Of a stretch of 64,000 nucleotides of DNA, positions 436 to 64,000 are shown piece after piece (within the stretch, counting starts at the first letter, position 1; the number at the start of each line of letters is the position of its first letter). This stretch comes from Macrostomum lignano. Taxonomy: Eukaryota. The notes under the pieces were generated by a model. The model made no database searches and was not told where the DNA came from. It worked only from the letters and a program-made list of their open reading frames with translations. A program made the position numbers and the translations under genes. The stretch lies in contig NIVC01001356.1 in NCBI GenBank assembly GCA_002269645.1, positions 186,001-250,000 of the forward strand, written 5' to 3'.

Positions 436-19591
<19,156 letters not shown>

Positions 19592-20815: not shown

Positions 20816-21460
20816 AAGGTTGAGAGATACTGCATGGGTTTAAAAATGAGAGATACCGGGTTGAATTGAAACAGGGGAGATACCTGTGAATGAGAGAAAC
20901 TCCGATAAAACAAAGACCAGTGCAAAACAGTAAAAGTACATATACATACATTTTACACGGTAATTTCAAAGATCGTATAATATGGGAAAGAAATTGGCTC
21001 AATCAAGACAATTTGCAGTCTGCTCTAACTTGAGGTGTTACAGTGCCAATGAGAAGGAATTGTAGCTAGCTAGTGCAGAAGACTGTGAAGCATCAATAGA
21101 GAAATCCTACAGAGTGCTAGACGACGCGCCTTAATTCTCTCGAGCATATAGGGGCTAAACTGCATTTTTCTACTGATGCATGGTTGAATATTGTATACGC
21201 TTGGTTAATTAGCAAACTAATTAATGAGAAGCAATTAGCAGCAATATTTGCGGTACTTATGACTTATGGTTGAGTGAATTTAATGGTATTTACGATCTAC
21301 ACGTGTAGATATGTAGATACACATATATGGAATTAGAATTTGTACGTGTAGGTAGGAATTCAGGTCGTCAGCTCTACATTCAATTACATGTAATAGGGGG
21401 ACAGTGTATTGTTGGTTGTGTGTGGCAATGCTGCATACAATCAAATGTTTCATGTAGGTG

Positions 21461-22031
21461 TCAAATGTTTTAGAATAATGTGTTGGGGGGGTGTGCCCCT
21501 CTGACTATGATCGTTGATGTTTCTGTTGAATCAAATAAGTCGGAGGTTCGATTTGTTTCTCTCGATCTCTAACCTTCAACAAGATGTTTATTACTAATCA
21601 ATGTTAGTAGCAATTCCTAATAGGATATTGATCACGCAATTACGCAAATTTGTTAAGCAATTCAGTGAAAATGGAGCCACAGGCTACTTATCGATATTGT
21701 TGCACGAATTGACGTTTGTCCGGATTTATCTCTGTTAAATCGGGATATTAGAGTTCAGGCCCGATTGTTGGGGCAAGCTAGCGGAGCAGTTGAGGAGGCA
21801 AAGAGGCGGAGACCCGAGAACCGGGAAAAACTGGAGAGAGGCTTCATTCTCACTGAACGCTAGTATATATATGATTTCTATAACGCATTTCATTGGTGTT
21901 CGCTTCACGCAATAGGATCTTTACTGGTGCACAAGCATGTGCTGTACTTTCCTGATAGAGAAACCTTCTGAAGTTCGCATTAGACTAAAAAATAACATTG
22001 GGCATAACATGCTTAAATTAAGATCACTTCA
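21461..22031 (-). repeat. 3' LTR
   Basis: Direct repeat of 28514-29084; preceded on the minus strand by GTGAAATAAGGGCAA (PPT-like, 22032-22046). Confidence 0.93.
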
Positions 22032-22712
22032 TTGCCCTTATTTCACAAAGCGAAGGCCCACCGAGCGGCATAAGCAAAAGAAAACAGGTGTTGGATTATT
22101 AGTGAAGTTGTAACTAATGCTACTTGCATACGAGGCGCAAGGTGTAGGCTAGAGAAAGTGGATAAAGTGGTGAGTAAAATGGTGAAAATAAGCATAGAGC
22201 ATGGCTTAGGAAAGGGTCTTAAATATTAGAGTAAAGCTGTTGAAACCAAAGTTAAATGAACAGAGGAATAGCAAGGAGGATAAAATAAGTTTCAAAAGTG
22301 GCTTATTAAAGGGTTTGCTAAAACAGACAAAGACAGATAAAACAGAGAATTTTCAGATGGACGAAAATAGGCAACAAGTAAAGTTAGAGGTATAAATAAA
22401 ATTGAGTAAAGGACAGTCAAACGAAATTGAGATTATTAAAGAAACGACTGGGACGCAAGGTGAAAAAGAAAGCTATTTTTAATCAAGGGTGTGGAATGTA
22501 CATTGTACGTGGGGTCGAAGAGATTATTGGCTTGGGGTGGGTGTTCGTAGAGCGCGTGAGTGTACACTGAAGCTAATTCAAAGGAAAGGATGGAGTCGCG
22601 TGGTATAAATAAGATAAAAAACGATAGGGAGGGAATTTTCTAGTTCAGGTTTTGTCCGCAATTGTTTTTAAGTTTCGATATAGCTCGTTTATCATTCAAG
22701 TTAGATTAGTCA

Positions 22713-22967
22713 ATGGCAGGTCTGTCTTTGGGAAGAGAGCAAATTACAGAGATCGCGGCTGGTATTCTCCAGGGGCGTCACGCGTATTTCATTTCCATCA
22801 GCGCGGTCGTCGCCATCATGCTGCTGCTGCTGTTACTGCTAGTGGCGGCGTTTGTAGCCTGCTGTTGTTGCTGCAAGTGTTGTTGCTGCTTTGGCGGCTG
22901 CAGCCGCTGTTGTCGCGCACCATTGCGGCCCGCTGCAACTGCCCGTGTCCAGGAGACTGCGGTGTAA
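22713..22967 (+). CDS. Putative 84-aa single-pass membrane protein with juxtamembrane Cys cluster, antisense within the LTR element
   Basis: ATG...TAA; about 26-aa hydrophobic segment followed by CCCCCKCCCCFGGCSRCCR; TATAAATA at 22604-22611; AATAAA near 23453 and 23489. Confidence 0.5.
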   Translation: MAGLSLGREQITEIAAGILQGRHAYFISISAVVAIMLLLLLLLVAAFVACCCCCKCCCCFGGCSRCCRAPLRPAATARVQETAV

Positions 22968-23788
22968 CTGCACAGTTGGTCTGCCAAGTCTTCTGCGTCC
23001 TTTGGGCGCCAACGTCAAAACGGCCTTTTTCAAGGCCACCACGTGTCAGATAGTGCTGTTCGTCTTAGTTTTGTTGCAGCCAGTAGGGTTTCTGTAGTCA
23101 GGCCGGTGTCGTAGTTCGTAGTTAGCCGTAGTTGTCGGTAGCAGGCATGTATTCTGTTAATTCTGAGCATAGCAGGTTGTTTCCAAGTAGTAGATAGGGC
23201 TGGGCAGTGGGCCGGGTTGGTGTTGAACAGAGTCGAAGCTGAATTTCGGTCAGGGCAGCGTGTAGAGCCGGATTGCAGTGTAGAGCGGGACGGCTGTGTA
23301 GATCCGGGTAACGCGTGGTCTTACAAAAGACCGAATAGGGATTATGAGGTGACGAAAGAAAAGATCATTGAGTTCACGTGGGTGAGCAAGAGTAGAGAAG
23401 ATGGTTCTGATAAATTTTTTCAAGGGTGAGTGATAGTAATTAAAGGTAAGCAAATAAAATGTAGGGCTAAAGCGTTTGACGACAACAGAATAAAACAAAA
23501 ATTTTGATAAGAGTGTTGAGAACTGACATTTCTACTGTGAGTAGCAAAAGAGTAGCGTATTGTCAAGGAAATTATCTAACGAAGATAGATAAGTTGAAGC
23601 GGAAAATGATAAATTGCGATTTAAGAGGAAGAAAGATATAATATATAATTATAAAACTAATAGAAATAATATAAACGGAAATAATTTTCAAAACGTATCG
23701 ATAATCAACTGTCCATCGATAATCAACTGCCGCGTATTGATTCACACATCCCGTGAGCGCAGATGATATCGCACAGCTGGAATAGGTT

Positions 23789-26566
23789 CTAGTCCGTGCT
23801 GATCACGAGTGTCAGGCTCATCCACGACGTCAGTCTGAGTAGCGTGATGCTGTGCCAGTGGCGGGTGGTGGTCGAAGTGAGTCTGTGGTATCGATGATGT
23901 GAAGTTCGGCAGATTGAGTTCCAGATTGATTTATAGCGTTTCATGTTGTCAAAGGTTTTCTCAATAATGCAGCCTTGAGATGAATAGCTACAGTGTGCCA
24001 TGGAGAAGGCTAACGATTCCATTGGTTTGCTAGGAGAGGCGAAAGCTATTATCCCTTGTATGAGTGTTGAAACTATTTGAGTTCGTGCCTTGCGATGGTA
24101 ACAGTCTTCGAGGAAGGAGGTTCCTGTATTGGAGCGAGAGATTTTGTAGTTTCCAGTGGTGGCAACCAGTTGAAGCTGACCATCAGGTGAGTTATATGAT
24201 TCGGTCCAATGTTGGCAATCTTGTGCGGCGACTGTAAGTGGGCGTAAGGTTACGTACGCATCACGGAGAGAGCGCAGAACCTGGCTCATTGGGAGGCAAT
24301 TAACCGAGATTTCCTCACGGAAGCATAAGCTGACTGGTGTTCTGGTTTGCTCCAGGTTAGTAGAGTAGAGCTGTAAGTGCACTGGTGTCGTAACGTCCTG
24401 TGACGACGTGAACTGTTCGCATCTGATCTGCTGAGGAATCTTGAAGATGCGCACGGGTCCATCTAATGGACAGAGCATTGGTGTGTCCACGTAGAGTGGA
24501 TGTTGCTTAGGATTCGATGGCAGTGGTGTTGTCTGCACCGTCGGGAATAGCGATAGCCAGATGAGTGTCACGAGAAGCGTCGTTAGACCAGTTAGTCGAC
24601 GTCCTTTCTGCTGAGACAGTGGTCTTTTTACGTGTACCTGCTGTCGCTGGGCACGTAGCATATCTTTTCTTAGCTTTGGTTGAGCGGCTGATAGCGTAGT
24701 GTACGGTTGAACGTGGATGACTGACAGTGTAGATGGACTGTCGCGGATTAATTTCTTAAACTGCCTGGTCGAGCCATGGAACTTGTACTCAATTGGTCTG
24801 TCCAAAGCATAGGTTGGAGTAGCCGTTGATTTTGACACAGGAACCTCAGTGAGACGCTGTGGAGCACTGGGTGTGCTGTTCGGTGGCACAATTTGTTGAG
24901 GCGAGTCCATAGTCGGCAGTTGTGGCATGGGGTCGTTCGAGACAACCTGAATTGAGTTTACACCGGCTGCAGGAGGGCGCGGTGACGGTGTTCTGGAACG
25001 TCCGTGGTTTGGTGAATCAGAGTGGCGTTCCCGTTGATATCGTTGAGTGGGGTTGCGCTGAAATTGTACGCGCCGGCCTAGATTATACCGCTGTGGGTTA
25101 TTGTTTGTTGTTCTCCCCTGTTTAATATCGTGTAGGGTACGACATTCTTCGGTATCATGGGTGTCCGAGTTGTGAAAGTGGCAGTATTTGGCTGGAGAGC
25201 CTGTGTCTCGGCTGCGAGGATCATCGGAGCCTCGTCTGTACCGGTCTTGAATCGGTTGATTGCGTGTCCACTTAGAGTCAGCCTGTCTTGGTTGTCTAGC
25301 ATTGGCAGTTTGTTGGCGTGCATTTCGAGGATCCTGGTAGCATCGATCTGTTGTGTGTCCAATCCTGTGGCAGAATTTGCACGTTGGTGGTTCTCTAGTA
25401 TTGCTAGCGCCTTGAATAGCCGCTACTATTGGCTTGGGCTTGATGGTTCCACATTCTAAGGCAGCAAGGCGTTTTTCTATATCGGCCGGAACGTTGTTTG
25501 GGGCCGTTAATTGTGAAGACTGCTGTATTTGTTCAAGGCGAATGGCCTGGTTGAGCAGCTGTTGTTCGGTATTCAGCGGGTTTCGCAGTAGTTCAACGCG
25601 AAGGTGAGGTAGAGCGCCACTTAGTATATGGCCGATCAATGTTTTGTTAAACATTTCATTTCGTTGGTCAATGACCGCTTGGTTAGCCGGTGCATTTTCG
25701 CCATCCACGGGTGGTAGTGGCGAGACTTCTGGGTAAATGGCACGAAGTTTGCGGCGAATGTCCGTGTAGTACTGGATGAATGGCTCACCCGGGAGTTGTC
25801 GGCGGTTGGCGATGTGATGTAGTGCCGAAGTGGATCCGAGAGTGAGTACCGCTATTCTGTCGGACAGAGACCGAACTAATTGGGTGTAGTCATTTTGTGT
25901 CTCGGCGGGTAGAGCGGCATATTCGATCTTTAGGAGATCGTTGAGGAGCCGAGGAAAGATGCGAAGCTTTGAGTTTTCATCTAGATTAAAAGTTCTCGCT
26001 GATAGATCATACTCCATGATGAAAGAGGCAAAATCATGAAGTTGATCTATCTCCTTGAGACCTTCGCGGATCTCGTTGATGGTACTAGCTGGGATTGCAG
26101 CGTGTGGTCTTTGTTGATCTCGCACAGCATTGATAAATTGTTGCATTAGTGCTTCTGCCATTGTAACGTTGCTCTCAGTTTCCTGGATATTGGCGTTATT
26201 TTGATTCAAATGATCAGGTTGCAGAAGTGGCTGTGGAGGATTTTGTTCTTGTTGCTGCTCGTACAACTCAGAAGGTTGTTCTTCGTCTCTGGTGCCGATG
26301 GCAGTGTTTTCTTGATGGAGGCCAGGTAGATGGCAAAATGTAGCTGGGGTAGCTGTTTGTGTTAGTTGCTGTTGGGTGTCGTCAGTATGGTGTCCTCCAA
26401 TGCCAGTAGAATGTCCACCAATACCAGTAGAATGTCCACAAATGCCAGTAGAATCACCAGAAATATCAATAGGATTTTCAGCGACACCGGCAGAATTTGG
26501 TGTGGATATTGCAGGCGGCTCTTGTTGTTGTTGTTGTCCGAGTTGGGTACCAGAACGCAATTTCAT
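23789..26566 (-). CDS. 925-aa Gag-(linker)-signal peptide-viral glycoprotein-like fusion; Env part appears truncated
   Basis: MKLRSG start; Gypsy capsid-like core (RRQLPGEPFIQY); zinc knuckles CKFCHRIGHTTDRC (25340-25381) and CHFHNSDTHDTEEC (25142-25183); no D(T/S)G, YxDD or integrase motifs; hydrophobic LTTLLVTLIWLSLFPTVQT at about aa 660-680; then a Cys-rich domain (PMLC, DCQHW, SPDGQL, HCSYSSQGC). Confidence 0.85.
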   Translation of the reverse strand: MKLRSGTQLGQQQQQEPPAISTPNSAGVAENPIDISGDSTGICGHSTGIGGHSTGIGGHHTDDTQQQLTQTATPATFCHLPGLHQENTAIGTRDEEQPSELYEQQQEQNPPQPLLQPDHLNQNNANIQETESNVTMAEALMQQFINAVRDQQRPHAAIPASTINEIREGLKEIDQLHDFASFIMEYDLSARTFNLDENSKLRIFPRLLNDLLKIEYAALPAETQNDYTQLVRSLSDRIAVLTLGSTSALHHIANRRQLPGEPFIQYYTDIRRKLRAIYPEVSPLPPVDGENAPANQAVIDQRNEMFNKTLIGHILSGALPHLRVELLRNPLNTEQQLLNQAIRLEQIQQSSQLTAPNNVPADIEKRLAALECGTIKPKPIVAAIQGASNTREPPTCKFCHRIGHTTDRCYQDPRNARQQTANARQPRQADSKWTRNQPIQDRYRRGSDDPRSRDTGSPAKYCHFHNSDTHDTEECRTLHDIKQGRTTNNNPQRYNLGRRVQFQRNPTQRYQRERHSDSPNHGRSRTPSPRPPAAGVNSIQVVSNDPMPQLPTMDSPQQIVPPNSTPSAPQRLTEVPVSKSTATPTYALDRPIEYKFHGSTRQFKKLIRDSPSTLSVIHVQPYTTLSAAQPKLRKDMLRAQRQQVHVKRPLSQQKGRRLTGLTTLLVTLIWLSLFPTVQTTPLPSNPKQHPLYVDTPMLCPLDGPVRIFKIPQQIRCEQFTSSQDVTTPVHLQLYSTNLEQTRTPVSLCFREEISVNCLPMSQVLRSLRDAYVTLRPLTVAAQDCQHWTESYNSPDGQLQLVATTGNYKISRSNTGTSFLEDCYHRKARTQIVSTLIQGIIAFASPSKPMESLAFSMAHCSYSSQGCIIEKTFDNMKRYKSIWNSICRTSHHRYHRLTSTTTRHWHSITLLRLTSWMSLTLVISTD

Positions 26567-28502
26567 GCAATGATCTGTGGAATGGGTTTACTTCGAGTGG
26601 TCTTGCAATTAAGAGTTGAAAATAATTCGCAATTTTGTAACAATAAAGATTTGAAATAGCGTGAAGCAATAGCATCTGAGCGTGATTTGCGGTCATCTAT
26701 CCAGGGTCAGTTTTTTGTTTTATATAAGCAAATTTTCAATATGTAGAGCTTCGGTAGCTGTAGTATCAATTATCAAAAGTGTGAGTTTAGAGCAATTTTG
26801 AGCAAGTGTTGAACAGTTGTATAAAGTAGAACTGAGTAGAGTCGGCTGATGCGCCTGTACTAATTATAATATAGCTCAGCGGTGGAGCGGTTAAAATATT
26901 TCATAGAAGCAGCAAGAAAAGCTGAGCCTCATCCTTGGATTGAGTTTGATTAGAATTTGAACAGATTTCGGTAGAAGATTCAGCGGAGGCGGCAATGTGC
27001 GCGTTGATTGATGCCTTTGAGATTGAACGGATTGGCGTTGAAAACTCAGCTGGTGAGTTGTGGTTAAGATGCCAGCGGATGTGGCGATGCGTGTTGAGTA
27101 CGCGATTTGAATTTGTTGTAAAAGGAACGAAAGAGACTCTGCAGAAGTCTGTGGAAGCAAGGCAGAGGCGTATGAGTGGCGTGCCAAAACTTCAAACTTG
27201 GAACACGATGAGCATGAACCAAGCACCAGTCCTGGGTTTAAGTGTGTAATTGACAAATAGATTCGGCCGACTAAAATAGAATTATTATTACCTGAAGGCA
27301 GGTGTAGAGGTCCTGTGTATAGGACAAATTGCCGCGGGCTTATCGCTGCTAATCATGAAGAAATGATGTGGCTGCTTGAAATTGAGAAACAAGGAATAGG
27401 GAATAGGAGAGGGTGGGTAGCAATCACAGCGTAATTTTTATTTTGTTTTGAGAAATTTTGAACGACTGCGAAGGCTAAAGGGCTGGTGTATGGGTAGACG
27501 AGGGTGGTAGGTTGTACTTTGCGGAGAAGGAAAGCGGATTGTAGTATAAATAAGAGCTTGGGACGGAAATTATTCCCATTAGAGAACAATGGGGGTTTCT
27601 GATGGGAAAGCCCAAGGAGGGGGAGCAGCCATTGAAAAAAAATGAATTCCCTGGGGTAAGAGAAGATTGAGAGTACTGAGAGTGTCGCACCGGTGTGACA
27701 GAATCATTCTCCCTCACTTTCTATCCCTGAGGATGAGAATTGCAGCGGAGAGAAGAGCTGGAGCGGATCACAGCTGAATTGTGGTAGGGCGTTGAGCCAA
27801 CTGAGTGAGGCGCGGAGCCGATAGGGCGTTTTAGCCAACTGAGTGAGGCGAACTGAGGCCAGTTGAGGCTGGTTTGTGAACTGATGCAGACCGGAATGGA
27901 ACTAGAATTTCCAGAAGACGAAAAACGATGCAGATCTGCTGTGAACCAGCCGGAGTAAAGGCGGAATTCTCCGGACGAGAACTGGTTTTGCGAGGCTAAA
28001 AATAGAAAAAGGATTGAGACAATGCTGGTTGCCTGGTTGGGATTTGTCGCCCAGGCAGGATATTTATAGAACAGAGTGAGATTGTGGAGAAAGAGCAAGG
28101 TGAACTTGACGTTCTTTGAGGTGAGGCGAGCAAAGTACTCGGAGAAAGTATATCAGAAGGGCGTAAATAGTGGGAATGGGTGGATTCCCATCGGAACCGG
28201 TTTGAGGACTGGTTCGCTGCTGGTTCTCCGAAGCGGGAGAGCGATTAGAGGTTGTAAATTTAAGAACATTAAATAACACTAATCTTTTCTACGATTCTAC
28301 AGCTTGGGAGAATCATACACGTAGTATTTTTGTAGTTTTGCAAATTGTATTGGTTTTTATATTTTGTAATTTTTTAATTTTTATATTTTTTACTGACCCT
28401 TTCTAAGATGCCATCACTAGCTCATAGCCAGCTCCACGGAGGTGTTCACCCCAGCATATTGAAGCCGGGCATGTTGAAGGAAATTACGGAGAGAAACAAG
28501 GT

Positions 28503-28512
28503 CGGGGAGCCA
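28503..28512 (-). promoter_or_regulatory. Primer-binding site TGGCTCCCCG, complementary to the tRNA-Asp(GTC) 3' end
   Basis: 1 nt after the 5' LTR. Eukaryotic tRNA-Asp ends ...CGGGGAGCCA; 10-nt match. Confidence 0.75.
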
Positions 28513-28513
28513 G

Positions 28514-29084
28514 TCAAATGTTTTAGAATAATGTGTTGGGGGGGTGTGCCCCTCTGACTATGATCGTTGATGTTTCTGTTGAATCAAATAAGTCGGAGGT
28601 TCGATTTGTTTCTCTCGATCTCTAACCTTCAACAAGATGTTTATTACTAATCAATGTTAGTAGCAATTCCTAATAGGATATTGATCACGCAATTACGCAA
28701 ATTTGTTAAGCAATTCAGTGAAAATGGAGCCACAGGCTACTTATCGATATTGTTGCACGAATTGACGTTTGTCCGGATTTATCTCTGTTAAATCGGGATA
28801 TTAAAGTTCAGGCCCGATTGTTGGGGCAAGCTAGCGGAGCAGTTGAGGAGGCAAAGAGGCGGAGACCCGAGAACCGGGAAAAACTGGAGAGAGGCTTCAT
28901 TCTCACTGAACGCTAGTATATATATGATTTCTATAACGCATTTCATTGGTGTTCGCTTCACGCAATAGGATCTTTACTGGTGCACAAGCATGTGCTGTAC
29001 TTTCCTGATAGAAAAACCTTCTGAAGTTCGCATTAGACTAAAAAATAACATTGGGCATAACATGCTTAAATTAAGATCACTTCA
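28514..29084 (-). repeat. 5' LTR (TGAAGTG...CATTTGA in element orientation)
   Basis: Direct repeat of 21461-22031; followed on the minus strand by the PBS. Confidence 0.93.
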
Positions 29085-29249
29085 GGTGACAATTCAATTA
29101 ACTGCATGTGGGAAACTATATGCGGGCAGTGTGTGTAGCTTGCTTGCATCTCAGGCCGGGGCTCCAACCCGCTGTGATTTTTTATTGGGTAAGGCGCTCT
29201 GCCTGTGTAAGTGCTGTATGCATATAGTGCCGCGTCTTGGGGGATTTCA

Positions 29250-36000: not shown

Positions 36001-39000
36001 TACAGTCTCTGTGATCTCTATCTGAAGTTTCTGTGATCTCTATCTACAGTCTCCGTGATATCTATCTCACAGTCTCTGTGATCTCTATCTACAGTCTCTG
36101 TGATCTCTATCTACAGTCTCTGTGATCTCTATCTACAGTGTCTGTGATCTCTATCTACAGTCTCTGTGATCTCTATCTACAGTCTCTGTGATCTCTATCT
36201 ACAGTCTCTGTGATCTCTATCTGAAGTTTCTGTGATCTCTATCTACAGTCTCCGTGATATCTATCTCACAGTCTCTGTGATCTCTATCTACAGTCTCTGT
36301 GATCTCTATCTACAGTCTCTGTGATCTCTATCTACAGTCTCTGTGATCTCTATCTACAGTCTCTGTGATATCTATCTCACAGTCTCTGTGATCTCTATCT
36401 ACAGTCTCTGTGATCTCTATCTACAGTGTCTGTGATCTCTATCTACAGTGTCTGTGATCTCTATCTACAGTCTCTGTGATCTCTATCTACAGTCTCTGTG
36501 ATCTCTATCTACAGTCTCTGTGATCTCTATCTACAGTCTCCGTGATCTCTATCTACAGTGTCTGTGATCTCTATCTACAGTGTCTGTGATCTCTATCTAC
36601 AGTCTCTGTGATCTCTATCTCACAGTCTCTGTGATCTCTATCTACAGTCTCTGTGATCTCTATCTACAGTCTCTGTGATCTCTATCTCACAGTCTCTGTG
36701 ATCTCTATCTCACAGTCTCTGTGATCTCTATCTACAGTCTCTGTGATCTCTATCTCACAGTCTCTGTGATCTCTATCTACAGTGTCTGTGATCTCTATCT
36801 ACAGTCTCTGTGATCTCTATCTACAGTGTCTGTAATCTCTATCTACAGTCTCTGTGATCTCTATCTACAGTGTCTGTGATCTCTATCTACAGTCTCCGTG
36901 ATCTCTATCTACAGTCTCTGTGATATCTATCTCACAGTCTCTGTGATCTCTATCTACAGTGTCTGTGATCTCTATCTACAGTCTCTGTGATCTCTATCTA
37001 CAGTCTCTGTGATCTCTATCTACAGTCTCTGTGATCTCTATCTACAGTCTCTGTGATCTCTATCTCACAGTCTCTGTGATCTCTATCTACAGTCTCTGTG
37101 ATCTCTATCTACAGTCTCTGTGATCTCTATCTACAGTCTCTGTGATCTCTATCTACAGTGTCTGTGATCTCTATCTACAGTGTCTGTGATCTCTATCTAC
37201 AGTCTCTGTGATCTCTATCTACAGTGTCTGTGATCTCTATCTACAGTCTCTGTGATCTCTATCTACAGTCTCTGTGATCTCTATCTACAGTCTCTGTGAT
37301 CTCTATCTACAGTCTCTGTGATCTCTATCTACAGTCTCTGTGATCTCTATCTACAGTCTCTGTGATCTCTATCTACAGTGTCTGTGATCTCTATCTACAG
37401 TGTCTGTGATCTCTATCTACAGTCTCTGTGATCTCTATCTACAGTCTCTGTGATCTCTATCTACAGTCTCTGTGATCTCTATCTACAGTGTCTGTGATCT
37501 CTATCTACAGTGTCTGTGATCTCTATCTACAGTCTCTGTGATCTCTATCTACAGTCTCTGTGATCTCTATCTACCTACAGTCTGTGATCGCTCTGAGTTC
37601 ACACAGTTTCGAAAAGCCATGTCTATTTCTTGTGTCAGTTTATTGTCATTTAAAAAACTTATTATTATAAGACAGCCCCGCAGCTAAAATAACACAAAAA
37701 ATAGGATCCTTGTTTTTATATGCTATTTTTCATAGCTGCCATGTAAGCGGTTTGCTGTGCTATAATATTCTGTGTTGTTTGCCATTATTCTGGCTGTCTG
37801 TCTGTCTGTGTTTTTTGCCACCTTATAGAATCCTGAGTCCTAATAGATCTGTTATTTAAAGTTCTAAATTTAGACTAGCATATTACGTATCTACTGTAGT
37901 AATGCCATGCTTGCTTTGCTTTAGAATGCGCAGATTCAGATATTTAATTTTAGTTAGTGGCGCAAGCGATAAAGAGAGTTCTGTGCCCGCGTGTGCAATG
38001 TAAGGTAAACAAAAATATTCAAGTTACACTGGCCCGCTTGGAAAGTAGAAGTTGCTTAGCATAAGAAAAATGTATGTATATTATATATAATTTAGGCGTT
38101 TACCTAGTTAGATACATCTGCCTTATTGTAACAGTGACTTTTGTGCAGCTTTGCATTGCAAGGTTTTGGGCTTGAGGTAGCGGGTGGTTTTCTGTTTGCT
38201 GCCAAAGTGTTTTTCTTATGCAGTTGCTAGGTTGTTCCTTTTTTCGTGATGTACAAGCAAGCGAACTTGCCTAAATTAGTTTATAGTTCAGTTTTTTAAA
38301 GAAGGTACATCTTGATATAAATTTAAAAAGTTCCTTTTTTAAGATTTGCATTGGAATGCAATTTTAACTGAGAGAAAGTCTTGACAGTGAGATTCTTAGA
38401 CTGACCCGAAACTGCAGGGTGAGATTCTTAGACTGACCTGAAAGTGCAGGGGTGAGATTCTTAGACTGACCTGAAAGTGCAGGGGTGAGATTCTTAGACT
38501 GACCTGAAACTGCAGGGGTGAGATTCTTAGACTGACCCGAAACTGCAGGGTGAGATTCTTAGACTGACCTGAAAGTGCAGGGGTGAGATTCTTAGACTGA
38601 CCTGAAAGTGCAGGGGTGAGATTCTTAGACTGACCCGAAACTGCAGGGGTGAGATTCTTAGACTGACCCGAAACTGCAGGGGTGAGATTCTTAGACTGAC
38701 CCGAAACTGCAGGGGTGAGATTCTTAGACTGACCCGAAACTGCAGGGGTTAGATTCTTAGATTGACCTGAAACTACAGGGGTGAGATTCTTGGACTGACC
38801 TGAAACTGCAGGGGTGAGATTCTTAGATTGACCCGAAACTACAGGGGTGAGATTCTTACATTGACCAGAAACTACAGGGGTGAGATTCTTAGATTGACCA
38901 GAAACTTCAGGGGTGAGATTCTTAGATTGACCCGAAACTACAGGGGTGAGATTCTTAGACTGACCCGAAACTACAGGGGTGAGATTGTTAGACTGACCCG

Positions 39001-42000
39001 AAACTACAGGGGTGAGATTCTTAGATTGACCCGAAACTACAGGGGTGAGATGTGCTTAACACTTACAAGACCCATCTAAAATCCCTGGGAATTTTTAACG
39101 CATTCTCTACCAGATCCGAGGACTCGCTGCCCCTATTGAACGGTTCCGCCGCGGCGGCTGCGGCAGCTCTGGGTGCCGCACCCGGCAACATGTCGGCCCT
39201 GTCGCCCTCTCTGCAGCGCTCCACCCTCGGTCCAAGCCAGCCTCAGCAGACTCCGCCAACGGCAAAGTCAAAATCCGGCAAATCTGGCAAACGGCACAAG
39301 GCCGCTGCAGTCGGCGAGACCAGCTTCGTTGTTAGCGGCGGCAGCGGCGCGCGCGCAGGTCGTCGACGTTCGTCCTCGGCGCTGCGCGTTGGCAAGAGTC
39401 AGTTCCATCGACTGCAGCTGGCCGGAGCTACTGTTGAACCGGACGAGTCGCTCTTGAACGATTTGCACAATGGCATCAAGTGCATGCGGGTGTTCTTTAA
39501 TAATCAGCGCGCTTGTCAGAGAACTTTTCAGGTGAGACCATGCCTTTCTCTAGTCTCACCCTGCCGGTCTCTAGTCTCACCCTGCCGGTCTCTAGTCTCA
39601 CCCTGCCGGTCTCTAGTCTCACCCTGCCGGTCTCTAGTCTCACCCTGCCGGTCTCTAGTCTCACCCTGCCGGTCTCTAGTCTCACCCTGCCGGTCTCTAG
39701 TCTCACCCTGCCGGTCTCTAGTCTCACCCTGTCTGTCTCTAGGCTCACCATGTCCTTTTCTAGTCTCACCTGTGTCTCTAGTCTAACCCTGTCTATTTCT
39801 AGTCTCACCCTGTGTCTCTAGTCTCAACCTGAAAATTCTCCCTTTCTGTCTGTTGTCTCACCCCGTCAGTCTCTAGTCTCAACCTGTCTGTCTGAAATTT
39901 CTCCTGTCTGTCTGTTGTCTCACCCTGTCTGTCTCTAGTCTCACCCTGTCTGTCTCTAGTCTAACCCTGTCTGTCTCTAGTCTAACCCTGTCTGTCTCTA
40001 GTCTCATCCTGTCTGTCTCTAGTCTCATCCTGTCTGTCTGTTTTCTCACCCCTTCTGTCTCTAGTCTCACTCCGTATGTTTCTGCTCATCCTGTCTGTAT
40101 CCACTTTCTCTCTCCCTGTCTCTACTCCCTCTTCCCTATCTCTCTACATGTCTAAAATACACGCTATATCTGTAGTCTCACCATGTGAGACTTGCCAACT
40201 TGCCATTCCCCCAAAACCTACCTACTTGCAGGACAAGACCGCCATAAACATAATTGCCCAATGCCTGTTGCATCCCCGTTTCGCCACGAAGACTCTGGTG
40301 CTGGAGCTGCTGGCAGCCCTGTGCATGCTAGACGGCATGCACCAGCAAGTTCTGGACGCTTTCGACTTCTTCAAAGAGCGAGTCGGCGAGAAACGCCGCT
40401 GGGAGACTTTGATGATGCACTTTAAGCAGCATGACAGCCTACCGGCTGAGCACTACTGCCTAGAGTTCATGATCAGCTGCGCCAGGTTCATCAATATTGT
40501 GCAGAATGTCAGCAATGAGCACATTGGACTTCGGGTCTTTTTACAATCGGAATTCTCCCAACTGGGTCTGGACAGCTTCCTGCACTCGTTGCGCGGTCAC
40601 TACGAGGATGCGAGATTAAATAGTCAGATTGAAGCGATATTTGAGAATAGCATCGATGTTGCCGGCTTGTATCAGGACTCGCTGGCTAAGCAGAGCGCCG
40701 TTACTAGGTGAGTTTAGCGACAATTAAGCGCCACATTGTCTAGACTTCAGCGCCAATTAAGCGCCACAATCTAGACTTTGGCGACAATCAAGCGCCACAA
40801 TCTAGACTTTGCGCCAATTAAGCGCCACAATCAAGACTTTAGCGCCAATTAAGCGCCACAATCTAGAATTTAGCGCCAATCAAGCCCCACAATTTAGACT
40901 TTGGCGACAATTAAGCATCACATTCTAGACTTTAGTGCCAATTAGGCGCCATAATCTAGACTTTGGCGACAATCAAGCGCCACAATCTAGACTTTGGCGA
41001 CAATCAAGCCCTACAATCTAGACTTTGGCGACAATCAAGCGCCACAATCTAGACTTTAGCGCCAATCAAGCGCCACAATATAGACTTTGGCGACAATCAA
41101 GCGCCACAATCTAGACTTTGGCGACAATCAAGCGCCACAATCTAGACTTTAGCGCCAATCAAGCGCCACAATCTAGACTAAAGCGCCAATTATAAGCAGT
41201 AGAATCTATGACAAAAATCACAGCAGTGATTTAACTAATTCCAATATCCCCTATTCCTCACCCCGCAGAGCCGCTGCCCTGGAGGAGCAACTCTACCAAA
41301 CTCAGTCCCGACTCCGTGAAGCCGAAGACACCGCCGCGGAACGCTTGGCGGAGCTGCGCGAACGCTTGACCAGCCGGGAGGCGGATTGCGCAACCCTTCG
41401 AGCTGATAAAGAGGCCGCACTCGAGGAGATGCAGAACAGCCTCAGTGCCGCGAGCAAGCACGCGGACGAGAAACAGCACCGACTGGCTCAGCGACTCGCA
41501 GATTTGGAGACGAAACTCCGCCAAGCCGAATCTGCCGTCGCCGCCGCGAAAGAGCGGGAGCAGAAACTGCTGCAACAATTGCAGCAGCAGCAGCAGCAGC
41601 AACCGACTGAGACGCCGGGAGTTCCCGCCGCTAAGATTCCCGGCGTTAATTCTCCGGCTCCCGCTGCTGCAGCGCCACCTCCTCCGCCTCCGCCTCCGCC
41701 GCCACCACCACCGCCGCCGCCACCGCCTGGAGGTCCGGGCGGTCCGCCGCCTCCGCCCCCTCCGCCGCCTCCGCCAGGCGTCCCAGGCGGAGCCGGGCGT
41801 TTAGCGGTGAAATCTCCGCTGGTGCCGAAGAATCGTTTGCCAATGTTGAATTGGACAGCAATACCTGCCAATGTGTGTCGGGGCACCGTGTTTATGGATA
41901 TGAATGACGATCAGGTTGGTTGCTTTAGTTGCTTTTGCACTTTTTATAGTGTAAAATATGTATATTGTAATCCTTTCATATCCAAACTAAGCTCCCTTCA

Positions 42001-45000
42001 CAAACCCCTAGTTAAGCCACACTTCACTAAGCCCTGATTAAGTTCCGCTCACAAACTTAAATTAAGTTCCCTCCAAAAACCCTATTTAAGCCCCTTTCAT
42101 AAAACCTCTAATTAAGCTCCCTCCACAAGCCCCTAATTAAGCTGCCTCCATAAAACCCTAATTAAGCTCCTTTTACAAAACCCTAATTAAGCTCCCTTCA
42201 CAACCCCTAATTAAGCTCCCTTCACAACCCTTAATTAAGCTCCCTTCACAACCCCTAATTAAGCTCCCTTCATAAAGCCCCTAATTAAGCTCCCTTCAAA
42301 AAACCCCTAATTAAGCTCCCTTCACAAAACCCCTAATTAAGCTCCCTTCGCAAAACCCCTAATTAAGCTCCCTTCACAAAACCCCTACTTAAGCTCCCTT
42401 CAAAAAACCCCTGATTAAGCTCCCTTCACAACCCCTAATTAAGCTCCCTTCACAAAACCCCTAATTAAACTCCCTTCACAAAACCCCTAATTAAGCTCCC
42501 TTCATAAAACCCCTACTTAAACTCCCTTCACAAAACCCCTAATTAAGCTCCCTTCACAATATCCCTAATTAAGCTCCCTTCACAAAACCCCTAATTAAGC
42601 TCCCTTCACAAAACCCCTACTTAAGCTCCCTTCACAAAACCCCTACTTAAGCTCCCTTCACAAAACCCCTACTTAAGCTCCCTTCACAAAACCCCTAATT
42701 AAGCTCCCTTCACAAAACCCCTAATTAAGCTTACTTCACAAAACCCCTACTTAAGCTCCCTTCACAAAGCCTTCAAAGCGCCGAGTCCCCCATGGCCTCC
42801 CCTCTGCAGGCTCGCAGCCGCATCGACCTGGACGATCTGGAAGACAAGTTCAAGCTAGCCGGCGGCGGTGGCACCGCATTCGGCGGCAAAGGCGACGCAT
42901 CGGACGGCGAATCGATGACTGCATCGTCGACGCGTCTTGCCGCCGCAGTTAAAAAAGTGGAACGACCGACACTGCTGAGTCACGACAGGTTCCGCAATCT
43001 GGCGGTAACCAAGCACAAAGTTGACTCGTTGGGACTGTCCTATGATCAGCTGGCTCTGGCTATTAAGCGATTGGATTCGGACAAGATTAACGCTGATATG
43101 GCTGAGATACTGCTGCGGCAGGGGCTGCCCTCGGATGAAGAGGTGCAGGCTTACAGAAGGCACCAGTTTGATGAGGGCAATCGGGTGGAGGATCTGAGCG
43201 AACAGGTGAGGATGAAGCAGAGATGCCTTTTTCGTGATTCTTCTCTACACTGCTTTTTGGGAAATTCTAATTACTAAATAAGTTCAGGATTTATGTGATT
43301 TTATTACGTAGTTGCTAAATTAGGGATTTGGGAGATTTTAGTCACTAAATTGAAGATTTAGGAGCTTTTAGTTATTAAATTGAGTATTGGGAGAGTTTAG
43401 TTACTCCGCCTCCTCGCTGCATCCGCCGGACGCCCCTGCAGCTAAGTCAAGTAAGTCAAGAGTTTAGTTACTAAATCGAGGATTGGGAGAGTTTAGTTAC
43501 TAAATAGAGGATTTAGAAAAGTTTAGCTACTAAATTTAGGATTTAGGAGAGTTTAGTTACTAAATTTAGGATTTAGGAGAGTTTAGTTACTAAATTTAGG
43601 ATTTAGGAGAGTTTAGTTACTAAATTTAGGATTTAGGAGAGTTTAGTTACTAAATTTAGGATTTAGGAGAGTTTAGTTACTAAATTTAGGATTTAGGAGA
43701 GTTTAGTTACTAAATTGAGGATTTAGAAAAGTTTAGCTACTAAATTTAGGATTTAGGAGAGTTTAGTTACTAAATTTAGGATTTCGGAGAGTTTAGTTAC
43801 TAAATAGAGGATTTAGGAGAGTTTAGTTACTAAATTGGGGAATTGGGAGATTTTGGTTGCTAAGCTGGGTATTTGGGAGATTTTAGTTGCTAAGCTGGGG
43901 ACTTGGGAGATTCTAGTTTCTAAGTTAAGGATTTGGCATATTTTAGTTACCAAGTTAAGAATTGAGGAGATTTTAGTCACTAAATAGAGAATTTACTGGA
44001 AGCTTGCAGTTATTAAATCGAGAACTTTTAGGAAGATTTTCCATGATGTCTGAAAACTGTTTTTACCTATTAATAAAGTGATTTAGACTTTATTTCATTT
44101 TCAGTAAAGTTAGCATTTTCAATCTTCAATTTTCAATCTATCAGGACCAACTCTTGGCTCGGTTGTGCCGGGTCCCCCGTCTGGAGCGCAGACTCAAAGC
44201 TCTACAATTTATTGGCCAGTTTGCTGAGAACCTGGCAGCGGTTGAGCCGCCACTGCTCACCATCATTGCGGCCTGCTCGTCACTGGAGAAAGCTAACAAG
44301 TTCAAGAAAGTTCTGGAGATCATTCTGGCTATAGGGAACTACTTTAATAGTCACCGGAGAGGCACAGCTTACGGCTTCCGTTTAGCCAGTTTAACAACTC
44401 TGCAGGATGTTAAATCTGCTGACAAGCGATGGACAATGCTGCAGTACATTGTGAACCTGATTGATACTAAAATGCCTGAGTTGAGCGATTTTGATGTGGA
44501 ATTGAAGCACTGCGAGAAGGCTGCCACAGTGAATCTGGATAATGTGAAAGCTGATGGGAATTTGCTGCTGGCTGGGTTCCAACAGGTGAGAATGCCTTTG
44601 TTTAGATTTATGAGGTCTCTGAGTTCATTTAGAATCGCATTCAGAATAGATCTAGTCCTATCGGGACTATGGTATAAAAATGTATCTTTTCTATCGACTG
44701 AGGTTTCAGAATAGATCTAGGTCTATAAAGACTGAGGTTTGAGAATAGATCTGTGTCTATAGAGACTAGGTTGAAGAATAGATCTAGGTATAGAGACTGA
44801 GGTTTGAGAATAGATCTCAGTCAATAGACTGAGATTTGAGAATAGACCTCGGTCTATAGAGACTGAAAGTTTGAGAGTAGATCTCGTCTATTCTCTTAAG
44901 ACTGATGTTTGAGAATAGACCTCGGTCTATAGAGACTGAGGTTTGAGAATAGATCTCGGTCTATAGAGACTGAGGTTTGAGAATAGATCTCAGTCAATAG

Positions 45001-61549: not shown

Positions 61550-61569
61550 ACTGAAACGATCCTGCGCAA

Positions 61570-64000
61570 ATGAGTAGTGCAAGTGCACTAGGGCTTGTCG
61601 GCCCATACGAAGAAGGCTCTGAGCCGTGGCATATGTACCAAGCAAGGTTAGAACAATATTTTGTTGCCAATGACGTCACTGAGGAAGCGAAAAAGCGAGC
61701 GATTCTGCTGAGTTCATGCGGCAAGAAAGTCTTCCATCTGGCCTTCAGTTTGCAGTCTCCTGCACAGCCATCAGCCAAGAGCTACACCGAAATTTGTGAG
61801 GCACTGAAGAGCCATTTCGAGCCTGAGGAGTCCGAGATCGTCCATCGTTACCGATTCTACACCAGAAATCGCAGGGAAGGTGAGGGCGTCGCTGACTTCG
61901 TCGCAGACCTCCGAGACCTGGCTCGCGACTGCAAGTTCGGCGACAGCCTGACTTCGATGCTTCGCGACAGGCTGGTGCTGGGAATCAACAACGACGGCGC
62001 TCAGCGGCGGCTGCTGGCGGAGCCCGATCTCACTCTAGCGAAGGCATTGAAGCTGGCCCTGGCCCACGAGTCCGCCGCCAAGGGCTGCCAGCTGGTGTCG
62101 GGAGCGAGTAAGCCAGATCCAGTCAGTCAGGAGTCCGTCAGCATTGTCAAGCAACAGCAGAAGTCATCTTCGACAAGGAGGTGCTTCAGGTGCCTGTCAA
62201 CGAAGCATCTCGCTAATAAGTGCCCGTTCGCCACCCAGAAGTGCTACAAGTGCTCAAAGACCGGCCACACTGCGGCTGCCTGCAAATCCCAGTCGAAGGA
62301 CGATAGAAGAGAGGCTCTGCAGATGCAGGACGGTGAGGAAAAAGACAGCTGCGAGGAGGAAACGGCCCACTCACTGTACCAGCTGTCCGGCAAGCGAGTG
62401 TCGAAGGTGCCGCCGATTACAACGACGGTGCGCATCAATGGCCGACCTGTTGTCATGGAAGTGGACACCGGAGCCTCCGTGTCCCTGGTATCCTCGAAGA
62501 CCTACAGGACCGTGCTCAACTCCCAGCCAGCACTGCAGCCTGCGTCCATGCAGCTGCGAACATACTCCGGTGAGAAAGTGTCAATCGAAGGCTGCATCTG
62601 CGTTGCTGTGGAAGCTGCTGAAGCACCGCCCAAGTCACTCAGCCTCCTTGTGGTCGCCGGCTGCGGATCCGACCTGCTCGGAAGAGACTGGCTGTCCGAG
62701 TTGCGGCTCGACTGGAGATCAATCAAGCAAATGGCGGCTGCTCCGGAGGTGTCGCCCAGACTGCAGCAGCTGCTCGACAAGTACAGCGATGTTTTTTCGC
62801 CTGAGCTAGGAAAGTACAACGGACCACCAGTGAGTTTGAATATGAAACCCGATGCTCAACCTCGCTTTATGAAGGCCAGGAATCTCCCCTTTGCTGTGAA
62901 GGATAAGGTGGAGAGCCAACTGAACCGCGAGATCGAACAAGGAATCCTGGTGCCCGTGCAGCACTCCGAGTACGCATCGCCGGTGGTGCCAGTGCTCAAG
63001 TCCGACGGCTCTGTGAGGGTCTGCGCCGACTTCAAGCAGACCGTCAACCCGAACGTGGAGCCCGACTCGTATCCTCTGCCGCGGATCGAAGAGCTGTTCG
63101 CGAAGCTGACTGGTGGGCGGCTCTTCACTAAGCTCGATTTGTCGCAGGCGTACATGCAGCTGCCACTCGATGAGGCTTCCCAGGAAGTCTGCACGATCAA
63201 TACGCACAAAGGGCTGCTTCGGTACACGCGGCTGCCCTTCGGTGTCTCGCCAGCGGTCGGGATTTTTCAGCGCCGGATGGACTGCTTGCTGCAAGGAATC
63301 ACCAGCACCGCCTGCTTCATCGATGACCTCATCATCACCGGGAAGGACGACAGCAGTCATCTGAACTCCCTGGAGCAGGTTCTGGAGAAGCTGAGCCAGA
63401 GCGGCCTCCGGTGCAAGCTGGAGAAGTGCCAGTTCATGCAGACGAGCGTCAGTTATCTCGGTCACCGCATCGATGCCGACGGCCTGCACCCGATCAAAGA
63501 CAAGGTCGAGGCGATTGTCAGCGCTCCAGCTCCCAAGGACGCAACTCAGCTGCGCAGCTTCCTAGGCATGGTGAACTACTATGGCAAGTTCCTGCCTAAT
63601 TTGTCTCAAGTCCTGGCACCGCTGCACCTGCTGCTGTGCGAGCAACACCGCTGGAACTGTGGCGCTGCTCAGAACGCCGCTTTCGAGAAGTGCAAGGCCC
63701 TGCTGTCTTCGGCTCCGGTATTGGCGCACTTCGACCCGAGCGAAGACCTGCTGCTTGAGTGCGACGCGTCCCCCTACGGCCTGGGCGCGGTCATTAGCCA
63801 CAGGATCGATGGAGCTGTCCGGCCTGTGGCCTTTGCCTCGCGTACGTTGCACGACGCTGAGAAAAACTACTCGCAGCTCGAGAAGGAAGCCCTCGCTGTA
63901 GTGTTTGCGGTCAAGAAGTTCAACGCGTACCTGTTCGGCCGCCCATTTCTGCTGGTGAGTGACCACAAACCTCTGCTTGGATTGCTTGCTGAGAACAAGG
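61570..64000 (+). CDS. Gag-Pol polyprotein (open at window edge): capsid, 2 CCHC knuckles, protease, RT, RNase H
   Basis: Read codon by codon with no stop: RLEQYFVAN, LRDRLVLGI, CFRCLSTKHLANKC / CYKCSKTGHTAAAC, MEVDTGAS, LDLSQAYMQL, RLPFG, FIDD, ECDASPYG, YSQLEKEAL, SDHKPL. Confidence 0.96.
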   Translation, partial: MSSASALGLVGPYEEGSEPWHMYQARLEQYFVANDVTEEAKKRAILLSSCGKKVFHLAFSLQSPAQPSAKSYTEICEALKSHFEPEESEIVHRYRFYTRNRREGEGVADFVADLRDLARDCKFGDSLTSMLRDRLVLGINNDGAQRRLLAEPDLTLAKALKLALAHESAAKGCQLVSGASKPDPVSQESVSIVKQQQKSSSTRRCFRCLSTKHLANKCPFATQKCYKCSKTGHTAAACKSQSKDDRREALQMQDGEEKDSCEEETAHSLYQLSGKRVSKVPPITTTVRINGRPVVMEVDTGASVSLVSSKTYRTVLNSQPALQPASMQLRTYSGEKVSIEGCICVAVEAAEAPPKSLSLLVVAGCGSDLLGRDWLSELRLDWRSIKQMAAAPEVSPRLQQLLDKYSDVFSPELGKYNGPPVSLNMKPDAQPRFMKARNLPFAVKDKVESQLNREIEQGILVPVQHSEYASPVVPVLKSDGSVRVCADFKQTVNPNVEPDSYPLPRIEELFAKLTGGRLFTKLDLSQAYMQLPLDEASQEVCTINTHKGLLRYTRLPFGVSPAVGIFQRRMDCLLQGITSTACFIDDLIITGKDDSSHLNSLEQVLEKLSQSGLRCKLEKCQFMQTSVSYLGHRIDADGLHPIKDKVEAIVSAPAPKDATQLRSFLGMVNYYGKFLPNLSQVLAPLHLLLCEQHRWNCGAAQNAAFEKCKALLSSAPVLAHFDPSEDLLLECDASPYGLGAVISHRIDGAVRPVAFASRTLHDAEKNYSQLEKEALAVVFAVKKFNAYLFGRPFLLVSDHKPLLGLLAENK

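Follow-up and report, generated by a model that had tools for sequence, protein, structure and literature searches.

A probable gB-type envelope fragment in a recent, internally deleted Ty3/gypsy Gag-Env-Pol element of the flatworm Macrostomum lignano

Errantiviruses of Nematoda, Bryozoa and Platyhelminthes are reported, in the main text and table of PMC13524379, to carry only envelope (ENV) proteins of the herpes simplex virus (HSV) glycoprotein B (gB) type and to have the gene order GAG-ENV-POL; the table holds nine flatworm elements, one of them from Macrostomum lignano (Mlig_errantivirus_2). Here we examined an Env-like stretch in 64,000 nucleotides (nt) of M. lignano DNA (contig NIVC01001356.1 of assembly GCA_002269645.1, positions 186,001 to 250,000 of the forward strand), hereafter the window, whose own coordinates are used throughout. 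The stretch is very likely the N-terminal quarter of a gB-type Env in a Ty3/gypsy Gag-Env-Pol element, present here as a recent, internally deleted copy. The family to which this copy belongs is like the elements described in those parts of PMC13524379 in its Ty3/gypsy Pol, gene order, gB-type ectodomain flanked by a signal segment and a membrane anchor, flatworm host and near-identical copies. The window family, with a long terminal repeat (LTR) of 572 nt and a length of 13,359 nt, is not Mlig_errantivirus_2, for which an LTR of ~863 nt, a length of 10.6 kb and another primer site are given there. It differs further in having its three genes in one frame, an arrangement for which the main text of PMC13524379 does not use the terms 'single ORF', 'polyprotein', 'frameshift' or 'splice', and in a Ser/Thr-rich insert of 170 amino acids (aa), a small antisense open reading frame (ORF) and, in the window copy, the deletion.

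Two other described systems come close. The non-canonical nematode endogenous retroviruses of Sacco et al. 2022 (doi 10.1099/jgv.0.001739), as cited in PMC13524379, are metavirus elements whose ENV likewise precedes POL, but come from another host phylum. Anakin, a BEL/Pao element with a chuvirus-derived glycoprotein, likewise joins, in the portions of PMC12440569 and PMC13524379 that treat it, a gB-like Env to an LTR element of invertebrates; in the window family, however, Env precedes Pol, and the solved structure nearest to its Pol is that of Ty3, with no BEL-specific Pfam family listed for the Pol of the intact sister protein P0003. Nor does the locus have the arrangement of an endogenous chuvirus, in which the glycoprotein lies beside chuvirus N or L genes, for the Env is in frame with Gag and a Ty3-like Pol within LTRs. 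Going by the main text and table of PMC13524379, flatworm gB-type GAG-ENV-POL elements are already described and the window copy is a defective member of this kind, so that the fold assignment alone is not news; the contrast with errantiviruses drawn in the original prediction is likewise dated, because the same parts of that paper count gB-type elements, flatworm GAG-ENV-POL ones included, as errantiviruses. The family itself seems uncatalogued. PMC12801592 treats 137 M. lignano LTR families, its main text without the word glycoprotein, and the gene ids and two short strings from the window were absent from five of its supplements, the family consensus file possibly lying elsewhere; the literature search found no paper combining Macrostomum lignano, LTR retrotransposon and envelope. 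The family may be among those 137 without annotation, or may stand among the bait sequences of the eLife authors, in Sacco 2022 or in Biryukov 2020.

The Env fragment and its fold

The Env-like stretch is enclosed by an LTR element of 7,625 nt on the minus strand, to which all element features below belong unless stated otherwise. Its two LTRs of 572 bp (5' LTR, 28513..29084; 3' LTR, 21460..22031) are identical at 570 of 572 positions, the mismatches lying at 28804/21751 and 29013/21960, and by the sequence of this pair the copy is a young one. A primer-binding site beginning TGG follows the 5' LTR directly (28501..28512), and a purine-rich tract adjoins the 3' LTR (22032..22045); together with the paired LTRs these are the marks of a Ty3/gypsy (Metaviridae) element. 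The primer site presumably resembles the 3' end of tRNA-Asp; the window holds no tRNA.

The element carries a frame of 925 aa, P0001 (23789..26566), which joins Gag, a signal-like segment, an Env fragment and 47 out-of-frame residues. The Gag region (aa 1-655; 24602..26566) has a capsid-like part at ~aa 165-345, a CCHC knuckle at aa 396-409 and a CHHC motif at aa 462-475, and it matches two distant proteins, P0004 and P0005, at E 2e-26 and E 9e-25; because it has no Pfam match, the label Gag rests on position and motifs. This CHHC motif, which follows the CCHC knuckle (25142-25183, minus strand), is a second, non-canonical zinc-knuckle-like one, C-x2-H-x4-H-x4-C. The signal-peptide-like segment (aa 656-679; 24530..24601) begins with RRLTGL at position 24601 (aa 656) and combines a basic start with a hydrophobic core and small residues at -3/-1; aa 659-677 form the most hydrophobic 19-mer of P0001 (Kyte-Doolittle 1.65), and a signal peptidase cleavage site is predicted near 679/680. 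The anatomy of this segment is the same in P0004 and P0005, where Gag, signal segment and Env also share one frame at 25-29% identity. The original prediction had placed an internal signal-like segment before Env and Env in frame with Gag, and both observations hold.

The Env fragment proper spans aa 680-878 (23933..24529) with eight Cys. As had been noted from its motifs, the stretch from TPLPSN to SIWNS comprises 205 aa and holds eight Cys; however, identity with the intact sister stops at aa 878, making SIWNS a product of the deletion junction and not Env, and at ~200 of ~800 ectodomain residues the fragment is a quarter of the ectodomain rather than the N-terminal half originally proposed. 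With the Env domain as query, 1.84 billion representatives yielded five proteins, among them the intact sister P0003 (99% identity) and P0004, P0005 and P0007 at E 5e-11, 4e-10 and 2e-5 (27-31% identity), and since three distant proteins match, the domain is not a chance one. P0006, another of the five, was dropped as a tandem-repeat artefact. Six of the eight Cys (699, 716, 748, 784, 859 and 866) are invariant across P0001, P0004 and P0005, while C757 and C822 are absent from the latter two. In a comparison by eye and unscored, the motifs and Cys come in the order shown by the rows for Bryozoa C2b and Nematoda C2 in supplement file 3 of PMC13524379. One Gag-signal-Env protein (P0005/P0012) is filed in a genome bin assigned to a Kangiellaceae bacterium, probably as animal DNA within that bin.

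We modelled the fragment with AlphaFold from a 4-row alignment and compared the model with known structures. Against the viral models of BFVD, Foldseek gave five matches at E ≤0.001 (2.7e-5 to 3e-4), each of them a fragment of herpes gB; against the PDB, all 34 among the matches listed were gB or Thogoto glycoprotein. VIA-align, which compared 48,161 chains, placed 28 at Z ≥2, and ranks 1-9 of these were taken by five gB chains (Z 5.2-5.9, root-mean-square deviation (rmsd) 3.5-3.8 over 105-110 residues) together with the Thogoto, GP64, Bourbon and Chandipura glycoproteins; the first fold outside class III followed at Z 3.0. Model residues 53-167 (24020..24364) superpose on residues 151-286 of HSV-1 gB, two chains of which gave Z 5.3-5.6 and rmsd 3.6-3.8 over 105-108 residues. 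These gB residues lie within domain I, which bears the fusion loops. The model thus has, at moderate scores, the fold of class III domain I, shared over 96-110 residues with herpesvirus gB, GP64, thogotovirus Gp and rhabdovirus G; it differs from these fusogens in sequence (4-12% identity), in being encoded within a retroelement polyprotein, and in comprising domain I only. In Pfam the ectodomain of the intact sister matched Glycoprotein_B only (E 0.068), in the part deleted from the window copy. Among the matches listed for Env, neither an F-type fold nor the Baculo_F profile occurs, an absence that carries little weight by itself, but class III proteins head the lists of Foldseek and VIA-align.

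Several results weigh against this assignment. Mean predicted local distance difference test (pLDDT) of the fragment model is 52, and residues 1-58 and 161-204 lie below 50, with the core (~residues 60-160) at 54-88. Foldseek found nothing in the PDB at E 0.001, with query TM-scores of ~0.3, and the best Z of 5.9 is below 8, the tool's level for a possibly common arrangement. The Glycoprotein_B match scores 13.1 bits against a cut-off of 43, the model of the whole sister ectodomain is uninformative (pLDDT 36.5), and the fragment had zero matches to Pfam and to PDB sequences. Its clusters in the ESM Atlas, at 0.89-0.92, were unnamed, DUF8395 and ependymin ones of low recognition value. Further searches were empty: a profile search of A1; word-index protein searches with P0001 560-900 (none at E 0.001 among 3,031 candidates, the 2,852-aa sisters being outside the length range), among 1,374 candidates (P0003 itself alone) and among 2,681 shorter proteins (no match); locus scans of viral contigs, metagenomes and prokaryote genomes, which found no relative; and the ESM Atlas with P0005 755-1009, which gave no usable match. 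As to the central helix and crown of class III proteins (domains III-IV), a region deleted in the window copy, the whole-ectodomain model has a low-confidence helix at residues 539-567; its top Foldseek match, the spike glycoprotein of Wenling dimarhabdovirus 10 (E 7.4e-4, TM 0.06), was not counted, the model being too poor.

Each fold score is modest, and the strength of the predicted assignment lies in unrelated class III proteins topping three lists. On this footing we hold the gB-like reading of the modelled fragment with high confidence. The original prediction of a class III, gB-like glycoprotein had proposed AlphaFold and Foldseek as its check, and class III glycoproteins indeed head the BFVD, PDB and VIA-align lists; of the likeness to chuvirus and herpesvirus proteins that it named, the herpesvirus part stands structurally at the top, whereas chuvirus-like and rhabdovirus-like glycoproteins come lower.

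Intact sisters and a proposed topology

P0003, an annotated M. lignano protein, shows what the window copy has lost. It is a single frame of 2,852 aa running Gag-Env-protease (PR)-reverse transcriptase (RT)-RNase H (RH)-integrase (IN), and 873 of 878 residues (99%) are identical to P0001. Three of the five members of its cluster are full-length frames of 2,852-2,859 aa, the other two of which show 1 and 8 differences from P0003 over their aligned residues; the intact element measures 13,359 nt. By hydropathy, the ectodomain of ~800 aa lies between peaks at 659-677 and 1483-1501, that is, between signal segment and anchor, and protease, RT, RNase H and integrase follow the second peak; the window copy lacks the anchor. 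The best PDB match of P0003 is Ty3-G Gag-Pol (E 1.9e-91), so that the sister has both the PR-RT-RH-IN order and the Ty3-like Pol of Ty3/gypsy elements, and its genes stand in the gag, env, pol order of gB-type errantiviruses. Judged by these frames, Gag-Env-Pol in a single frame is the organization of the family. Residues 1000-1170 of P0003, deleted in the window, are Cys-free, 47% Ser/Thr and mucin-like, and an RIRR site stands at 1192, just past this Ser/Thr-rich stretch.

We propose that the intact polyprotein threads the membrane of the endoplasmic reticulum twice. Gag would stay cytosolic; the internal signal sequence would send Env into the lumen, with signal peptidase cutting near 679/680; and the second segment would stop transfer, so that Pol would be synthesized as an extension of Env's cytosolic tail, from which the protease of the element would release it. 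Furin-like cleavage at RIRR would prime the Env trimer, and Pol would reach particles via the tail of Env and not as Gag-Pol. Release of Env by signal peptidase, which the original prediction had also suggested, is plausible and consistent with the anatomy of the segment, and we think it fairly probable that the polyprotein as a whole is processed in this membrane-threaded manner.

A less likely alternative, to which we nevertheless give some weight, is that Env is expressed from spliced, trans-spliced or internally initiated RNA, and/or Pol from an env-skipping RNA, the single frame being incidental. Met636 is available for this 20 residues before the signal segment, and with one frame for all three, Gag, Env and Pol would be locked in the ratio 1:1:1. 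Such a ratio is unusual for retroelements. The leader (26567..28512), moreover, has 16 upstream ATGs in 1,946 nt, so that plain scanning is unlikely and Gag translation probably needs internal entry or RNA processing anyway. Against the alternative, the in-frame arrangement is kept at 25-29% identity, the last Met of P0004 is 56 residues upstream of the signal segment, and no joint of leader or gag to env was listed in the contigs of any of the four sequencing runs, bearing in mind that contigs drop rare forms and that none is recorded as RNA. A short direct repeat was also seen in the leader (minus strand), near 27790-27860.

The internal deletion and the less probable readings

At the end of the Env fragment, eight letters (23923..23930) replace 5,742, a net loss of 5,734 nt which shifts the frame. 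The 5,742 letters correspond to three times the codon distance 879 to 2793 in P0003, and their absence deprives the window copy of its membrane anchor, of about three-quarters of its Env ectodomain and of almost the whole of pol. What is left of pol is the last 59 codons of integrase with their stop (23742..23921), out of frame with P0001 and without a difference from P0003 between residue 2794 and its C-terminus, so that the 47 residues after aa 878 are out-of-frame and not Env. Eight letters at the junction repeat 6 nt downstream. Short downstream repeats of this kind at a junction are as in templated end-joining or template switching. Two other origins were rejected: a retrocopy of spliced RNA, because the ends of the missing segment are not GT..AG, and an integrase remnant fused to Env as the source of the post-Gag segment, because these residues also stand in the uninterrupted frame of the sister.

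The products of the window copy would be Gag and an Env fragment of ~250 aa (199 true and 47 out-of-frame residues), secreted and without an anchor. Lacking the anchor, that fragment cannot be a working fusogen, and the copy alone would carry out neither membrane fusion nor reverse transcription. Since the copy has retained its LTRs, primer site and purine tract, it could be mobilized in trans by intact sisters, and it is most likely a non-autonomous passenger.

That the deletion is an assembly error and the locus intact is improbable in our judgement. The 5,742 letters are present at the junction in contigs from three of the four sequencing runs (X4, X1 and X17), and the fourth run has loose contig ends at both borders of the deletion. 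In favour of an error, the contigs of X4 and X17 cross these letters with no branch listed, and those of X4 also carry the flank-LTR join of the window insertion. Against it, record 6 of the X1 contigs spans 23893-23988, including the eight junction letters, with no difference from the window (flanks of 30 and 58 letters, one letter under the tool's bridging rule), and the silence of other contigs on a rarer form has to be read with the tendency of contigs to drop such forms. Because the junction recurs in an X1 contig, the deleted form also exists outside this assembly.

The same recurrence without differences, and a frame open over 925 aa, could be read as signs of co-option, in which Gag and a secreted domain-I fragment would interfere with the intact family in the manner of a restriction factor. 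We regard this as slightly less credible still: with LTRs differing at 2 of 572 positions an open frame needs no selection, four of the in-frame contig differences listed (at least five) change a residue, and a frame-shifting deletion looks like a scar of repair or template switching. Least credible of all is capture of a host secreted protein (e.g. an ependymin-like one) or of a non-fusogenic beta protein with the class III match as a shared arrangement, which the ependymin clusters at 0.89-0.91 in the ESM Atlas and the Z-scores below 8 would allow, but against which stand an Atlas recognition value (1593) under the reliable level with ependymin rows sharing 138-147 of 256 features, the ranking of nine class III chains, which represent four groups of viruses, ahead of any other fold, the weak gB Pfam match on a different part of the ectodomain, and the position of all informative homologs of enough length behind Gag.

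An antisense frame, the surroundings and significance

The 3' region of the element, 1,710 nt, contains an antisense ORF of 84 aa (22713..22967, plus strand) with one hydrophobic segment, a Cys cluster and a mildly basic tail, preceded by TATAAA at 22604 (~105 nt upstream) and followed by AATAAA at 23453 and 23489. Its hydropathy of 3.24, Cys not counted, is that of a short protein with a single membrane segment. When either the entire 3' region or the local 310 nt was shuffled, a comparable ATG frame (at least 60 aa and as hydropathic) appeared once in 500 dinucleotide shuffles and never in 500 trinucleotide shuffles, a test designed after the ORF was seen; part of the ORF is a CTG-rich tract, and longer-range repeat structure could explain it. 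The contig differences listed inside it, one silent and one Gly-to-Cys, are uninformative on selection. By its sequence we regard the ORF as a candidate accessory gene. In size and single membrane segment it is like the sORF2/FAST-like proteins of MDG1-group elements, for which the relevant parts of PMC11952523 give 63-107 aa and some members without the MGxxxS/T motif; it differs from them in lacking that myristoylation motif (it begins MAG), in its antisense orientation and in its Cys cluster. With the plant Retand ORFs, as presented in the pertinent sections of PMC11963269, it shares its orientation opposite to the element's genes and its place after pol and before the 3' LTR, but those are long and mostly have TRP28 domains, whereas it is short.

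At the outer ends of the element (21456-21460 and 29083-29087), termini read as TG..CA leave no target duplication of 4-6 bp, and read one base inward they leave a 4-bp duplication, AGGT; loose contig ends of other element copies fall at 29083-29085. Elsewhere in the window, an open frame of 432 aa (892-2190, minus strand) is, we presume, an intact Tc1-type transposase, and a Gag-Pol frame of a second LTR retrotransposon, apparently without env, exits the window edge (61555-64000, minus strand). A poly-proline stretch and FH2-like segments occur at ~39000-44700, exons that we take to be those of a formin-like host gene; its frames lie at 39049-40711 on the minus and 41177-44714 on the plus strand, which suggests an inversion or an assembly flip.

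Taken to its furthest extent, the picture would be that of an active, enveloped agent resembling a retrovirus: a single Gag-Env-Pol polyprotein threaded through the membrane and processed as the structural polyprotein of flaviviruses is, Pol recruited via the Env tail, a gB shielded by a mucin-like stretch, a small Cys-rich membrane accessory or cell-fusion protein from the element's own antisense promoter, and the deleted copy riding along as a defective form. We consider this combination as a whole unlikely, and found no such union of membrane-threaded polyprotein, mucin-like gB and antisense membrane protein in the papers examined. If expressed, the antisense membrane ORF would add a type of accessory gene to animal Ty3/gypsy elements. 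The parts of PMC13524379 considered here describe gB-type GAG-ENV-POL elements from sequence and predicted structure, and do not address protein production or particle formation. M. lignano is an animal in which transgenesis is available, according to the abstract of PMC12801592, and near-identical intact frames in such a host make polyprotein topology, packaging of Pol and cell-to-cell spread examinable in the natural host.

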